From assembly GCA_036782775.1 (NCBI GenBank), contig DAIPYJ010000006.1, positions 4,289 to 68,288 on the forward strand: a stretch of 64,000 bases of DNA, in the 5' to 3' direction. The translations under genes and the position numbers were made by a program. How positions within the stretch are numbered: the stretch's first letter is position 1; every line of letters starts with the position of its first letter. This DNA is from Candidatus Dormiibacterota bacterium. GTDB taxonomy: Bacteria; Chloroflexota; Dormibacteria; CF-121. The notes under the pieces were generated by a model. It ran no database searches, was not told the origin of the DNA, and worked only from the letters and a program-made list of their open reading frames with translations. Of this stretch, positions 20,361 through 39,933 are shown piece after piece.

Positions 20361-20918
20361 TTATCTCCGGCGATCCAGACGCTCCAGCGCTCGGAGCACG
20401 CGCGCCGGGTTGCCGCCTGCAATCACGCCGGCGGGAATGTCGCTGAGGACGACCGCCTGGATCCCGATTACGGAGTCACGGCCGATCCTCACGCCGGGCA
20501 GCACGGAGACCTGGCCGCCGATCCAGACGTTGTCCTCGATCAGGACGGGTTGTGGCGCGGGCGGTTGCCGCCGATCGACTGGCGATTCGGAGTAGTCGAG
20601 GTGGTCGCGGACTTCACAGGATCCGAGCACGCAATCGGCGCCCACGTCGATCCGATCGGCGGCGATCAGGGTGCAGCCGTTGAGCCTGGCATTGGCGCCG
20701 ATGCGGATCGTGGCTTCGGGCCGGGTCGTGATCAGCCGGTTCACCTCGGCGTGGGACCACGCATTAACTCCCGTTTCCAGGACGACACGACCCGGGCCGC
20801 TGAGCCGCAGCCGACCGTTGCCGAGCAGCCCTGGGCCTATCGCGTGGCGCGACTGCAGCCTGTAGGGCATCGTTGTGATCCAACCCAGCGCGCGAGCCGC
20901 GCGGCGTTTCCAGTTCAC
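20361..20918 (-). CDS. left-handed beta-helix (hexapeptide-repeat) sugar O-acetyltransferase, Maa/LacA-like
   Basis: C-terminal IEDNVWIGGQVSVLPGVRIGRDSVIGIQAVVLSDIPAGVIAGGNPARVLR matches maltose/galactoside acetyltransferases. Possible start M17 (20870). Confidence 0.75.
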   Translation of the reverse strand: MNWKRRAARALGWITTMPYRLQSRHAIGPGLLGNGRLRLSGPGRVVLETGVNAWSHAEVNRLITTRPEATIRIGANARLNGCTLIAADRIDVGADCVLGSCEVRDHLDYSESPVDRRQPPAPQPVLIEDNVWIGGQVSVLPGVRIGRDSVIGIQAVVLSDIPAGVIAGGNPARVLRALERLDRRR

Positions 20919-20951
20919 GGTTTTGTCGACCTCGCAAGCGTAATCGGATAT

Positions 20952-22196
20952 TTACGCGGCGGCGAGCTGATCCGGCGCTCGCGCCGGATGCAGAAAGTCG
21001 TAGCTAGGGGCCACGCTGCGCAGCTCCCCATCGGTAGCGCGGACCAGCTGCCACCCACCCTCATGCACCATCCAGTGGTGGCGAAGGCAGAGCAGAACCA
21101 GGTTCGAGAGGTCGGTCGCTCCACCGGCGACCCAATGCACAAGGTGATGGGCCGCCGTCCATGACGCCGGGCGCTCGCATCCTGGCCACTGGCAGTGCTC
21201 GTCCCGAGCATTGAGAGCACGCCGCATGGCACCGGAGACGACCCGCCGGGCGCGGCCCGCTTCCAAGACGACTTTCGCCGGTCCGAACACGACTCGCGCG
21301 ATCGACGAGTCGCAGGCAATGCGCTGTACGGTCTGGCTCGACACGGGTTGCGAGAATTCGAGGTCGGCGGCGGGCGACCCGCTCAATCCCCGGAGCGTCT
21401 CGAGCGTGGTCGTCACCTGCAGATGAGGCCGCTGACTGGCCCGATGCGGTAAGCGGCCGCCATCTAAGGCCAGCGTGGCCATCTCCACCAGGGCGTCCGC
21501 CTGACGGCGGTCGAGACAGCGGTCGTCGCCTTGCCCACTGCGCTGGGCCAAGGGCTCGAGGGCGGTTCGCAAGGTGGCGGCGCCGATGGAATCGAGTTGA
21601 CCGCTGATCAGCGAGCAGCCGTTTTCAAGTGGCATGATCTTCAGCCACCGCTCCTCAGCGGCTATGCGCTGTTCTTCGGCGACCGCCGCGGCGTTGAGCG
21701 CATGCCGCACGCGCACGCAGTAGTGCCAGAAGCGGCCAGGCGTCGAGCACTTTGCCTTCTCCAGCAGCTCATCCTCGGGAAAATCGATCTCGGCTGGGAT
21801 TCGCTCAACCGAGCGCAGCGTGCTTGCCATGACGGACAGATGCGCAAAGCCGATCTCCCCTGCCGTAACGGCGTCGGCGCTTTTCGTTAGCGCGCCAAGG
21901 TGCTTGCCAACGTTGAGGCGGTCAGCAGCGACCCCGTACTGCATCTTGCATTCCTGCCGGAGCCAATGGACCGGATCATCGCCTGGGTCACCTTCATTGA
22001 AAGCCCTCGATTCGACCAAGGCCGCCGCATCGATGGAGAACCTCAGCTCGACGTAATCAGCCACCTGCCGCTCGAGGACGAGCCTCTGCGCGTAGTCCTC
22101 AGGCTCGAGATCTTGGAAAAGCTCCCCCAGGAATGCGGCCGTCTTTCGCGCGATGCTCGCGTCGCCCGCCTGCCGATTCCCCCCTTCCCCCATCAT
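20952..22196 (-). CDS. DUF222 + HNH endonuclease domain protein (REP13E12-like family)
   Basis: C-terminal HNH ..DEHCQWPGCERPASWTAAHHLVHWVAGGATDLSNLVLLCLRHHWMVH... N-terminal about 300 aa DUF222-like. Only DUF222/HNH gene seen in window. Confidence 0.8.
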   Translation of the reverse strand: MMGEGGNRQAGDASIARKTAAFLGELFQDLEPEDYAQRLVLERQVADYVELRFSIDAAALVESRAFNEGDPGDDPVHWLRQECKMQYGVAADRLNVGKHLGALTKSADAVTAGEIGFAHLSVMASTLRSVERIPAEIDFPEDELLEKAKCSTPGRFWHYCVRVRHALNAAAVAEEQRIAAEERWLKIMPLENGCSLISGQLDSIGAATLRTALEPLAQRSGQGDDRCLDRRQADALVEMATLALDGGRLPHRASQRPHLQVTTTLETLRGLSGSPAADLEFSQPVSSQTVQRIACDSSIARVVFGPAKVVLEAGRARRVVSGAMRRALNARDEHCQWPGCERPASWTAAHHLVHWVAGGATDLSNLVLLCLRHHWMVHEGGWQLVRATDGELRSVAPSYDFLHPARAPDQLAAA

Positions 22197-22207
22197 CAAC
22201 GCTTAGC

Positions 22208-22236
22208 ATTATATCGAACATATGTTCGGCTGTCAA
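22208..22236 (-). promoter_or_regulatory. consensus sigma-70 promoter TTGACA-N17-TATAAT (minus strand) with a perfect LexA/Cheo box CGAACATATGTTCG in the spacer. Drives the HNH/DUF222 gene
   Basis: Minus-strand read cgcTTGACAgccgaacatatgttcgaTATAATgctaagcgTTGATGATG. -35 at 22231-22236, SOS box at 22215-22228, -10 at 22208-22213, start codons 11-14 nt downstream (near-leaderless). Confidence 0.6.
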
Positions 22237-22314
22237 GCGTTGGCGACGTCCCCCCGAGCGATTGGCCCGGATAACTTGTCGATACAGATACACAGTTTAG
22301 TGTAAGATGCGCTG

Positions 22315-23823
22315 GTGCTGGCCAGGGCGCTCTCTGGGAGCCTCTTCGGCCTGGAAGGGGTTCGGGTCGAGGTAGAGGCCGACATCGCCGACGGGCTCCC
22401 CGGCTTTCACATCGTCGGGCTGGGCGATCGCTCGCTCCAGGAGGCGCGCGAACGCGTAAAGATCGCGATCAACAACAGCGGCTTTCAGTTCCCCGGCCGA
22501 CGCGTCACCGTCAACCTGGCGCCGGCGCAACTGCCGAAAGAGGGGACCGGATTCGACCTCGCGATGGCGGCTGCGATCGTCAACGCCGCCGACGAGCGAA
22601 GCCTTCCGGCGGATACCGCCTGGCTGGGTGAGCTGGCGCTCGACGGATCGATCCGCCCGATCCGCGGGACGCTGGCCATCACCGCGCATCTGGACAAGCT
22701 TGGCGTGCGGCGCTTTTTCGTTCCGGCTGGCAACGTGGCCGAAGCCAGGATCGCGACCGGGGCCGAGGTGGTTGGCATCGATCACCTTCGCGACCTGAAA
22801 GCGCACTGGGAAGATGGCGCCCCCCTGGCCGGTTCGACTCCGACCACGTCCGCCCCGCCGACCGATCCCGCCCTTCCGGTTGACCTGGCGGAGATCCGCG
22901 GCCAGGCGCATGCGAAACGCGCGCTCGAGATCGCCGCCGCTGGAGCGCATCATCTTTTATTGGTCGGCCCGCCTGGTGCCGGCAAAACCCTGCTCGCTCG
23001 AGCCTTGACTGGGATCCTGCCGCCGCTGACGGCCTCAGAGGCGGTTGAAGTCACCTCGATCGCGTCCTGCGTCGGCAGCCTCCCAGCAGGGACTGGCCTG
23101 CTGGAGCTGCCGCCATTCCGCGCTCCGCACCACACCATCTCGGCAGCCGCGCTGATTGGTGGCGGCGGTGCGGCGCCGCGCGCCGGCGAGGTCACCAGAG
23201 CCCATCGAGGTGTCCTATTTTTGGACGAGATCACCGAGTTCCATCGGGACGCCCTCGAATCATTGCGGCAGCCGCTGGAAGAAGGCCGCGTCGCGGTCGC
23301 GCGGTCTCGCGGACATGCCGTGCTTCCGGCACGGGTCATGCTGGTCGCCGCCTCGAATCCGTGCCCCTGTGGTTTCGCCGGGGATGCAGGGCGCATCTGC
23401 GAATGCAGCCCGCCGGAGCGCCAGCGGTATCGCGCCCGGCTGTCGGGACCGATCCGCGATCGAATCGATCTGCAGGTGACGGTCCCGCGCCAGCCTGCCG
23501 GCGAGCTCTTACGCCCTGATGGCTCGCCGGAGAGCAGTCCAGCGGTCAAGGCTCGGGTGATGGCCGCGCGCGCTCGGCAGCTCGAACGTCGTCCTGATGG
23601 ACCGCTCAACGGAGGGCTGTCGGGGGCGCAGCTGCGCCGCGACGTCCAGCTCGATACCGCCAGTCAGGCGTTGCTCGAGCAAGCGGGCGAACGGTTGCAT
23701 TTGAGCGGGCGGGCCCTGCATCGGGTGCTGCGGGTGGCGCGCACCATCGCGGACCTGGACGCCAGCCCTACGGTAAACCAGGCCCACGTCGCGGAAGCGC
23801 TGCAATACCGCGAGAGCGGGTGA
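22315..23823 (+). CDS. comM: Mg-chelatase-like AAA+ ATPase ComM/YifB
   Basis: GTG start giving VLARALSG. Walker A GPPGAGKT, Walker B LFLDEITEF, C-terminal zinc-binding CPCGFAG...C.C motif. Confidence 0.85.
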   Translation: MLARALSGSLFGLEGVRVEVEADIADGLPGFHIVGLGDRSLQEARERVKIAINNSGFQFPGRRVTVNLAPAQLPKEGTGFDLAMAAAIVNAADERSLPADTAWLGELALDGSIRPIRGTLAITAHLDKLGVRRFFVPAGNVAEARIATGAEVVGIDHLRDLKAHWEDGAPLAGSTPTTSAPPTDPALPVDLAEIRGQAHAKRALEIAAAGAHHLLLVGPPGAGKTLLARALTGILPPLTASEAVEVTSIASCVGSLPAGTGLLELPPFRAPHHTISAAALIGGGGAAPRAGEVTRAHRGVLFLDEITEFHRDALESLRQPLEEGRVAVARSRGHAVLPARVMLVAASNPCPCGFAGDAGRICECSPPERQRYRARLSGPIRDRIDLQVTVPRQPAGELLRPDGSPESSPAVKARVMAARARQLERRPDGPLNGGLSGAQLRRDVQLDTASQALLEQAGERLHLSGRALHRVLRVARTIADLDASPTVNQAHVAEALQYRESG

Positions 23824-37718: not shown

Positions 37719-37785
37719 GCTGTATCCCGATTGGGCGCACGGAAGTTCGGGGATAATCTCGCCATACATCACATAGGAACCTGAG

Positions 37786-39933
37786 ATGCAATTCGCCGAC
37801 CTGCTGACGAAAGTCAGCTACCTGCCGCCGGGTGACGTCGAGGTGTTGTCGCGGGCCTATGACGCGGCGGCCAGCGCCCACCACGACCAGAACCGCCTGT
37901 CCGGCGAGAAGTTCATCGAGCACCCGCTCTCGGTGGCGTCCATCCTCGCCGACCTGCAGTTGGACCGGGACACCCTGGCGGCGGCGATCCTCCACGACAC
38001 GGTCGAGGACACGCACCTGACCGTTTCCGACCTGGAGCAAAGCTTCGGAACCACCGTCGGCAAGCTCGTCGCCGGCGTCACCAAGCTGGACAAGATCAGC
38101 TTCCGCAGCCAGGAACAGGCGCAGGCGGAGAACGTTCGCAAGATGCTGGTCGCGATGGCGGAGGACGTGCGCGTCGTCCTCATGAAACTGGCCGACCGGC
38201 TCCACAACATGCGCACCGTGAACTTCCTGCCCGAGAACCGCCGCCGCGCCATGGCGCAGGAGACGCTCGACATCTACGCCCCGCTGGCGCACCGGCTCGG
38301 CATGTGGAACATCAAATGGGAACTCGAGGACCTGTCGTTTGCGCAGCTTCATCCCGATGAGTACCAGGAGATCGTCAAGAAGATCGCCCGCAAGCGCAAA
38401 GAGCGTGAGACCTACGTCAACGACATCAAGGAGATCCTGGAGCGTGAGCTCGCCGCCGTGGGCATCAAGGCCGAGACCACCGGCCGCCCGAAGCACGTCT
38501 ACAGCATCGCCAACAAGCTCGCGCTCGGGAAAGACTTCGACGAGATCTACGACCTCTCCGCGATCCGGGTGCTGACGGACTCGATCAAGGATTGTTACGG
38601 CGCGCTCGGGGTCATCCACTCGCTCTGGAAGCCGATTCCTGGGCGGTTCAAGGACTACATCGCGATGCCGAAGTCAAACGGTTATCAATCGCTGCACACC
38701 ACGGTGGTCAGCCACACCGGTGAGCCGATGGAGATCCAGATCAGGACCCACGAGATGCATCGCACCGCGGAATGGGGCGTGGCCGCCCACTGGGCCTACA
38801 AGGAGGGAACCGGAAAAGACGAGCGAAAGATGGACCAGCGCTTTGCCTGGCTGCGACAGCTGATGGATTGGCAGAAGGAAGTGCTGGACGCCGAGAAGTT
38901 CGTCGACGCGGTCAAGGTCGACGTCTTTCGCGATGAGGTCTTCGTGTTCACCCCGCGGGGCGATGTCCTCGCGCTCCCCACCGGTGCCACCGCCGTCGAT
39001 TTCGCCTACCGCATCCACACCGAGGTCGGTCACCGCTGCATCGGTGCCAAGGCGAACGGGCGGATGGTTCCCCTCGACTATCCGCTGCAGAACGGCGACA
39101 TCGTCGAAGTCCTGACCTCGAAGGGGCCGCACGGGCCCAGCCGTGACTGGCTCGCGTTCGTCAAGACTGCCGGCGCCGCCCAGAAGATTCGCGCCTGGTT
39201 CAAGAAGGAGCGCCGCGAGGAAAACGTCACCAAGGGCAAGGAGCTGCTCGACAAAGAGTTTCGCCGCATGCAGCAGCGTGCGCTGGCCTCCATCGGCGAA
39301 GAGCGGATCCTCGAGCTGGCCAAGGAGTTTCGCTTCAGCGAGCTCAACGATTTCTACGCCGCGATCGGCTACGGGGATGTCAGCCCGCACTCGGTGCTGC
39401 TGAAATACATGGCGGTCAGCCAGCCAGACGGGAACGGCGAGTTTCCGCTGATCCCCCTCGTTCCACAATTCAAACCAACCGGCGAGATCCGGGTGAAAGG
39501 GGAAAGGGGCGTCCTCACCCAGATCGCCCAATGCTGCAAGCCGGTGCCTGGCGACGCCATCGCCGGCTACATCACGCGCGGCAAGGGCATCACCGTCCAC
39601 CGCACCACCTGCAAGAACGTGCTGAACGTCAGCAACCAGGAACGGCTGGTCGACGTCGATTGGGACACCGGCGGCCGGCAGCTCTATCCGGTTGGGATCA
39701 AGATCGAGGCCTGGGATCGCACCGGGCTCCTTCGCGACATTGCCACGGTGATCGCGGAAAGCAAGATCAATCTCACCGGGGCGGAGGTCCAGGTCTACGA
39801 CGATAAGACCGCGGTGATCTCGACCACCGTCGAGATCAGCAGCCTGACGCAGTTGAGCCGCCTGATGGAACGGCTTGAAACCGTCAAGGACGTCCACACG
39901 GTCGCCCGAGAAGGCAACCTGGCGCACACCTAG
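37786..39933 (+). CDS. relA: bifunctional (p)ppGpp synthetase/hydrolase
   Basis: HD hydrolase domain, synthetase domain, TGS, ACT. Confidence 0.9.
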   Translation: MQFADLLTKVSYLPPGDVEVLSRAYDAAASAHHDQNRLSGEKFIEHPLSVASILADLQLDRDTLAAAILHDTVEDTHLTVSDLEQSFGTTVGKLVAGVTKLDKISFRSQEQAQAENVRKMLVAMAEDVRVVLMKLADRLHNMRTVNFLPENRRRAMAQETLDIYAPLAHRLGMWNIKWELEDLSFAQLHPDEYQEIVKKIARKRKERETYVNDIKEILERELAAVGIKAETTGRPKHVYSIANKLALGKDFDEIYDLSAIRVLTDSIKDCYGALGVIHSLWKPIPGRFKDYIAMPKSNGYQSLHTTVVSHTGEPMEIQIRTHEMHRTAEWGVAAHWAYKEGTGKDERKMDQRFAWLRQLMDWQKEVLDAEKFVDAVKVDVFRDEVFVFTPRGDVLALPTGATAVDFAYRIHTEVGHRCIGAKANGRMVPLDYPLQNGDIVEVLTSKGPHGPSRDWLAFVKTAGAAQKIRAWFKKERREENVTKGKELLDKEFRRMQQRALASIGEERILELAKEFRFSELNDFYAAIGYGDVSPHSVLLKYMAVSQPDGNGEFPLIPLVPQFKPTGEIRVKGERGVLTQIAQCCKPVPGDAIAGYITRGKGITVHRTTCKNVLNVSNQERLVDVDWDTGGRQLYPVGIKIEAWDRTGLLRDIATVIAESKINLTGAEVQVYDDKTAVISTTVEISSLTQLSRLMERLETVKDVHTVAREGNLAHT

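Follow-up and report, generated by a model that had tools for sequence, protein, structure and literature searches.

In the 64-kb window (the whole stretch of DNA that was analysed, 64,000 nucleotides), the gene for a DUF222-HNH protein is quite probably driven by a near-consensus housekeeping-sigma promoter of its own, which would be repressed by LexA and released by DNA damage. The core of the sequence-only reading, which had described a Cheo-type SOS box within a consensus promoter of a DUF222/HNH gene, was borne out by the same layout at 59 homologous loci and by the literature. That reading had also called the box a Gram-positive/actinobacterial LexA operator. The match to this motif is exact, but the host is a Candidatus Dormibacterota MAG (an uncultured soil phylum) and not an actinobacterium or another Gram-positive organism; both the identical DUF222 protein in NCBI and ComM point to this phylum.

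On the minus strand, the elements follow one another in the order TTGACA (22236-22231), gcCGAACATATGTTCGa, TATAAT (22213-22208), gctaagcg, TTG, ATG and ATG. The perfect -35 (22231-22236) and -10 (22208-22213) hexamers and the 17-nt distance between them were found exactly as they had been described. With its 12/12 consensus match, TTGACA-N17-TATAAT is the sole match in the 64-kb window even when up to two mismatches are allowed, and 0.23 matches are expected from shuffled sequences; the hexamers and their spacing within 16-18 nt are those of a sigma-70/SigA-type promoter. The spacer of exactly 17 nt is filled by the 14-bp palindrome CGAACATATGTTCG at 22215-22228 (no strand assigned), a putative LexA (Cheo-type) operator. 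This palindrome has zero mismatches to CGAAC-N4-GTTCG, as had been claimed, and an A/T-rich centre, and it overlaps the core promoter elements, as is typical of LexA boxes. No RNA family was matched by an Rfam scan of the region.

CGAAC-N4-GTTCG occurs twice in the window, compared with 0.13 expected occurrences. The second copy (36521) lies inside the prolyl-tRNA synthetase gene and looks like a chance occurrence. Boxes with one mismatch were not enriched in the window (7 found, 3.9 expected) and were mostly intragenic. One such box, CGCACGGAAGTTCG at 37736-37749 on the plus strand, immediately precedes a GATAAT, and its distance to the relA/spoT-type gene downstream (37786-39933) is 37 nt; because the centre of this box is G/C-rich, it is probably a chance match as well.

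Conservation of this arrangement was studied by a homologue scan with one genome per species, which yielded 331 relatives, and the best 80 of these 331 loci were analysed. Almost all of the 80 belonged to Dormibacterota MAGs, and several genomes had 2-4 copies. The upstream DNA was sufficient for box scoring at 76 of the best 80 loci, and the box beside the gene start was exact in 39 of the 76 and had one mismatch in 27 (typically CAAAC or GTTTG). The full layout, i.e., a TTGAC-type -35, a box with no more than one mismatch in the spacer and a TAnnnT -10, was found in 60 modules, namely the window and 59 homologues. The spacer was 17 nt long in 48 of the 60 modules; the -35 was TTGACA in 29, and the -10 was TATAAT in 30 and TAnnnT in all 60. 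The information content amounted to 1.1 bit over the promoter with its box, with 1.2-2.0 bits at nearly every position of the box, compared with 0.09 bit per position in the sequence 5' of the -35.

In the alignment of the closest homologues, which represent three genomic contexts, similarity is confined to the stretch from the -35 to the stop codon. The composite of promoter and box was kept while the coding sequences of the homologues diverged to 45-84% identity. By this clear phylogenetic footprint, the promoter-operator is assigned to the DUF222-HNH gene, and comparison of the loci indicates that the gene is passed on together with its promoter and operator as a single compact unit.

The DUF222 + HNH nuclease gene occupies 20952-22196 on the minus strand and encodes 414 aa. 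In the ORF 20952-22199, Pfam detected DUF222 (PF02720; E=1.5e-29, 103.7 bits, cut-off 24.4) and HNH (E=3.5e-06, 27.5 bits, cut-off 21.4), which places the protein in the family. The HNH catalytic and zinc-binding residues, including C340, H350, H351, N365, C370 and H378, were invariant among 118 homologues, and the protein is likely an active nuclease because of this invariance. An AlphaFold (AF2) model built from the 118 sequences had a pLDDT of 75.6 with a confident helical N-terminal domain. Its fold search against the PDB gave no match at E<0.1, and neither did a sequence profile search of the PDB with the protein give a match. No PADLOC model of an anti-phage defence component matched either.

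The start of translation was studied in the window and in the family. Between the -10 and the start-codon cluster TTG(22199)-ATG(22196)-ATG(22193) (22191-22199, minus strand), the sequence gctaagcg contains no Shine-Dalgarno sequence. The three start codons lie 8, 11 and 14 nt after the -10, respectively, and the NCBI annotation of the identical DUF222 protein begins at the ATG at 22196 (414 aa). In 43 of the 60 modules, the first ATG or GTG follows the -10 after 6-7 nt. In bacteria, the usual distance from the -10 to the transcription start is about 7 nt. Since these two distances coincide, a leaderless mRNA appears to be the norm in the family. A leaderless gene would have its ATG or GTG about 6-8 nt after the -10 and no Shine-Dalgarno sequence; the window has a TTG at 8 nt, and its first ATG follows at 11 nt. 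In the close homologues L003 and L083, a GTG occupies the position of this TTG, and the discriminator of the window is one base longer than theirs. Translation of the window mRNA would thus begin at a 5'-terminal UUG or, more likely, at the AUG at 22196 after a leader of 3-4 nt, and the earlier description of the start as near-leaderless is a fair one. Because the TTG replaces an ancestral leaderless GTG/ATG and the first ATG is 11 nt from the -10, the translation efficiency of the window copy is uncertain.

To our knowledge, no LexA of Dormibacterota has been characterised, and the identity of the box was approached through its other occurrences in the lineage. At 16 of the related loci (L008, L009, L010 (3377-5365), L013, L015, L017-L023, L025, L035, L036 and L040), an imuA/imuB-like cassette lies within about 0.4-1.5 kb of the DUF222 gene. 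It is preceded by a second box, mostly CGAACAAATGTTCG, on the opposite strand and inside TTGACG-17-TAAGAT. The cassette encodes a RecA-like protein of 225 aa, which matches the N-terminal part of Pfam RecA and weakly NCBIfam ImuA, and a protein of 404 aa that resembles Y-family polymerases; both fell below the NCBIfam curated cut-offs and were named by architecture and weak similarity. No dnaE2 adjoins the cassette in those loci. The box was also found at two uvrB genes. At the uvrB of L049 (11275-11310), it stands directly before the -10, and at the uvrB of the Dormibacterota-like locus L130 (4122-4153; UvrB 78% identical), the centre of the box differs and TAGACT follows after 3 nt. The ATG of the latter gene follows the -10 by 6 nt, hence this gene is leaderless. 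The same motif is thus found upstream of canonical SOS genes in the lineage, i.e., imuA/imuB-like genes at 16 loci and uvrB at two. imuA/imuB and uvrB are classic SOS genes. Because the box precedes them, it is most likely the LexA operator of Dormibacterota, and LexA as the box-binding protein in this phylum can be regarded as a strong inference.

The gene for the repressor itself was sought. None of the tblastn queries, i.e., the LexA proteins of E. coli, B. subtilis and M. tuberculosis and the RecA of E. coli, detected a lexA or recA in the window or in Dormibacterota loci totalling about 0.9 Mb; the RecA matches that occurred in the Dormibacterota loci were rejected as recA, being ImuA-like paralogues. 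Metagenomes were then scanned with a pattern that combined the box with codons for LTxRQ, a motif of the LexA N-terminus, 8-38 nt further on. The scan gave 120 loci (L098-L217), 85 of which had a true lexA. Since lexA follows the box at so many of these loci, CGAAC-N4-GTTCG is the autoregulatory LexA operator in other high-GC soil lineages, e.g., Gaiellaceae. None of the 85 lexA loci could be assigned to Dormibacterota, and tetranucleotide similarity did not separate the phyla. The best candidate for a Dormibacterota lexA, L193, was rejected because it belongs to Gaiellaceae, and the sole Dormibacterota-like locus from the scan was the second uvrB locus (L130). At the 85 metagenome lexA loci, the order is a TAcnnT -10, the Cheo box and a GGAGG leader, a placement of the operator that differs from the in-spacer layout of Dormibacterota.

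That lexA was found neither in the window, nor in the 0.9 Mb, nor at a metagenome locus assignable to the phylum speaks for another explanation, in which CGAAC-N4-GTTCG would be bound in this phylum not by LexA but by another repressor that responds to DNA damage or stress and happens to have the same operator sequence. This explanation is considered improbable. We know of no other repressor family that uses CGAAC-N4-GTTCG, and the box precedes LexA-type targets, namely the imuAB-like cassette, uvrB and the DUF222/13E12 genes. Moreover, its sequence does not differ from the LexA consensus operator in Firmicutes and Actinobacteria, for which GAAC-N4-GTTC has been described as the LexA motif (PMC3323433).

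The relation of the box to the divergent comM gene was also considered. The start of comM at 22315 was the same in this analysis as in the sequence-only reading; the divergent region between DUF222 and comM is 118 bp long, and the comM start follows the centre of the box after about 93 bp. The position of the box within this short region and the fact that comM and dprA are DNA-processing genes would favour the idea that the box serves both divergent genes and that comM-dprA-topA is also SOS-regulated. However, at this distance from the comM start, the centre of the box is outside the footprint of RNA polymerase at that gene. In addition, comM adjoins DUF222 at no other of the best 80 of 331 DUF222 loci. 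In four comM orthologue loci (L094-L097, 80-89% ComM identity), the gene order is NUDIX(-), hexapeptide transferase(-), comM, dprA, topA, and DUF222 is missing. No box with up to two mismatches was found within 700 bp of comM in these four loci, whereas the core promoter of comM is kept. Alignment with them located this core, a TACAC-N6-GTGTA palindrome overlapping a TAAGAT -10, at 22289-22308 on the plus strand of the window; in the window and in L094-L097, the TAAGAT-like -10 is followed by GTG 6-9 nt later (6 nt in the window, 22315). Because these loci have the comM core and neither DUF222 nor the box, the comparison indicates that the box came with the DUF222 gene and is not part of the control of comM. 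Joint control of both genes is accordingly very unlikely, and the earlier suggestion that comM might also be affected is not supported. comM is probably leaderless and would be transcribed from its own promoter under different control, and the TACAC-N6-GTGTA palindrome points to an operator of another regulator.

The gene order in the window is trmD, rnhB, NUDIX(-), hexapeptide transferase(-), DUF222-HNH(-), comM(+), dprA, topA. Compared with L094-L097, about 1.3 kb is additional in the window (about 20919-20951 to about 22270), and this segment contains the promoter and the DUF222-HNH gene only; divergence of the intergenic DNA prevented an exact placement of its edges. At a conserved chromosomal site, the hexapeptide-transferase|comM junction, the segment is thus present in the window and absent from L094-L097. 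The insertion parted the hexapeptide-transferase gene from its former divergent promoter region, and in L094-L097 that gene faces comM directly. In the window, the hexapeptide-repeat transferase gene (20361-20918, minus strand; Pfam) starts 33 nt after the DUF222 stop codon. A terminator scan of this 33-nt gap revealed no terminator-like site, and the hexapeptide-transferase and NUDIX genes may be read through from the SOS promoter. In the closest homologues (84% and 71% identity), the gene with the same promoter-operator is at another locus, with an ECF sigma/anti-sigma pair on one side and an aminotransferase/arginase pair on the other.

A multi-copy family in varied contexts, with a window copy that is an extra segment relative to related genomes, could suggest that the palindrome is not an operator and instead serves a selfish DUF222-HNH element for recognition or recombination (in homing, or as a transposition end). 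Such a role is extremely unlikely for a palindrome that stands in a fixed register inside a promoter spacer and that is also present at imuA-like and uvrB promoters without an attached DUF222 gene. No inverted or direct repeats and no target duplication flank the 1.3-kb segment, and the DUF222 paralogues within a genome share 66-84% DNA identity, which argues against recent transposition; the family thus shows neither the terminal inverted repeats nor the target-site duplications nor the near-identical copies of a mobile element. On viral contigs, no full-length relatives were found, the matches being limited to the HNH domain at 34-40% identity. An active transposon was rejected on account of the missing terminal repeats, the 66-84% identity of the paralogues and the lack of full-length viral relatives, and a phage origin was rejected on account of the HNH-only viral matches. 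In the compared genomes, the DUF222 family gives the picture of paralogues that were dispersed long ago and are occasionally gained or relocated. Finally, although single consensus matches can arise by chance, a chance resemblance without function has a negligible probability and is already refuted, since 0.13 boxes and 0.23 promoters, taken separately, are expected per window and the composite was kept at about 60 loci despite coding divergence to 45-84% identity.

The following course of events is proposed for the LexA-repressed promoter of the DUF222-HNH gene. In an undamaged cell, a LexA dimer would occupy the 14-bp palindrome that fills the spacer between the -35 and -10 and would keep RNA polymerase off. 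DNA damage would then lead to RecA-stimulated self-cleavage of LexA and free a promoter with perfect hexamers and optimal spacing. From the freed promoter, a strong burst of mRNA, leaderless or with a leader of 3-4 nt, would be produced for the HNH nuclease. LexA as the binder, the position of the transcription start, the induction by damage and the role of the nuclease are the parts of this scheme that we infer.

That LexA controls DUF222 (13E12) genes had already been established for M. tuberculosis, and the present analysis supports an extension to Dormibacterota. In M. tuberculosis, 6 of 25 LexA ChIP-seq peaks were located at 13E12 (DUF222) genes (PMC3381160), and the 13E12 family is strongly inducible by DNA damage (PMC3381160, PMC13157036). 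The statement in the sequence-only reading that some mycobacterial 13E12 (DUF222/HNH) genes are damage-inducible agrees with these reports. The M. tuberculosis genes (Rv0336, Rv0515, Rv1702c, Rv2100, Rv1588c and Rv0095c) belong to the same Pfam family, in which DUF222 is usually combined with HNH, and like the DUF222 genes of Dormibacterota, they are multi-copy diverged paralogues with a GAAC-N4-GTTC-type SOS box at the promoter. LexA binding was shown by ChIP-seq in M. tuberculosis. The present case, from sequence alone, belongs to another phylum, Dormibacterota. The arrangement there is more regular: the operator has a fixed place in the spacer between the -35 and -10 of a near-consensus promoter, the start is leaderless, and the module occurs at 66 of the 76 sampled family members and not in a subset. 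In further contrast to 13E12, no second, RecA-independent promoter of the RecA-NDp type is present, and an imuA/imuB-like cassette often adjoins the gene.

The box and its promoter also resemble other SOS systems. The 14-mer of the window has the exact CGAAC-N4-GTTCG form of the Cheo box of Gram-positive SOS promoters (Bacillus subtilis and actinobacterial LexA regulons). As in Cheo-box promoters, the operator overlaps the core promoter, so that repressor and RNA polymerase compete (PMC3323433 and general knowledge). In contrast to such promoters, the -35 and -10 of the window are of perfect consensus, which is unusual for high-GC organisms. The LexA-controlled imuA-imuB(-dnaE2) cassette has its counterpart in the pair of imuA-like and Y-family polymerase-like genes with the same box and spacer register at the 16 related loci; this cassette neighbours DUF222 in other genomes but not in the window, and it lacks an adjacent dnaE2. 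A likeness may be seen as well to SOS-controlled selfish or mobile genes, such as the integron integrase gene intI, colicin and pyocin nucleases and prophage repressor circuits, in which LexA silences a nuclease or recombinase at a promoter-overlapping operator and damage releases it. Unlike these systems, the window has no recognisable mobile machinery, element ends or immunity gene.

In many copies of the family, a small ORF of 65-99 aa, leaderless from the SOS promoter, stands ahead of the DUF222 gene, giving two-gene units (L010 (5735-5935 + 5899-7188), L007, L008, L011-L013, L015, L017, L019, L022, L025, L033, L035, L040 and L041). These units recall the split 13E12 pairs of M. tuberculosis. 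The product of the small ORF ends in a conserved W-x-T-x-P-x-F, and it begins with M(K)MGVGG in those copies that are closest to the window gene. In most two-gene copies, the TGA of the small ORF shares bases with an ATG of the DUF222 frame (ATGA). Such an overlap suggests coupling by termination and reinitiation, and this stop/start coupling was preferred to a programmed frameshift, which was rejected for the two-ORF subfamilies. The window subfamily has one fused ORF that retains only the MGxGG start.

A broader reading can be put forward tentatively and is rather doubtful as a whole, namely that DUF222-HNH and the small leaderless upstream ORF form an ancient dedicated SOS effector that is common to Actinobacteria and Dormibacterota, is always equipped with the operator-in-spacer promoter and is tied to the ImuA/ImuB mutasome. 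In such an effector, the damage-induced nuclease could make breaks or nicks that feed error-prone repair or genome rearrangements such as those observed at 13E12 genes in M. tuberculosis.

We know of nothing that had been reported on the damage response of Dormibacterota before. The analysis provides this phylum with a probable SOS operator and three regulon members, i.e., DUF222-HNH, the imuA/imuB-like cassette and uvrB. LexA control of DUF222/13E12 nucleases would thereby appear as a deep and ancient property of the family across phyla and not as a mycobacterial oddity. With control of this kind in more than one phylum, it becomes more plausible that the family serves the host in its damage response, and the function of the family becomes worth testing. 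In addition, the unit of promoter, operator and leaderless gene could represent a clean natural expression module that is portable, tightly off and strongly on.

Two further observations concern the distribution of the module. At L009 (2612-2650), a complete TTGACA-box-TATAAT has no start codon or DUF222 ORF directly after it, and a DUF222 gene follows about 2 kb further on; this site may be a remnant or an interrupted module. The same promoter module with a Dormibacterota-type DUF222 gene was also found on contigs labelled Solibacter (L027, L028 and L067), Nitrosopolaris (L038, L039 and L052) and Verrucomicrobiia (L080), and these contigs with labels of unrelated phyla, including an archaeon, are likely mis-binned.
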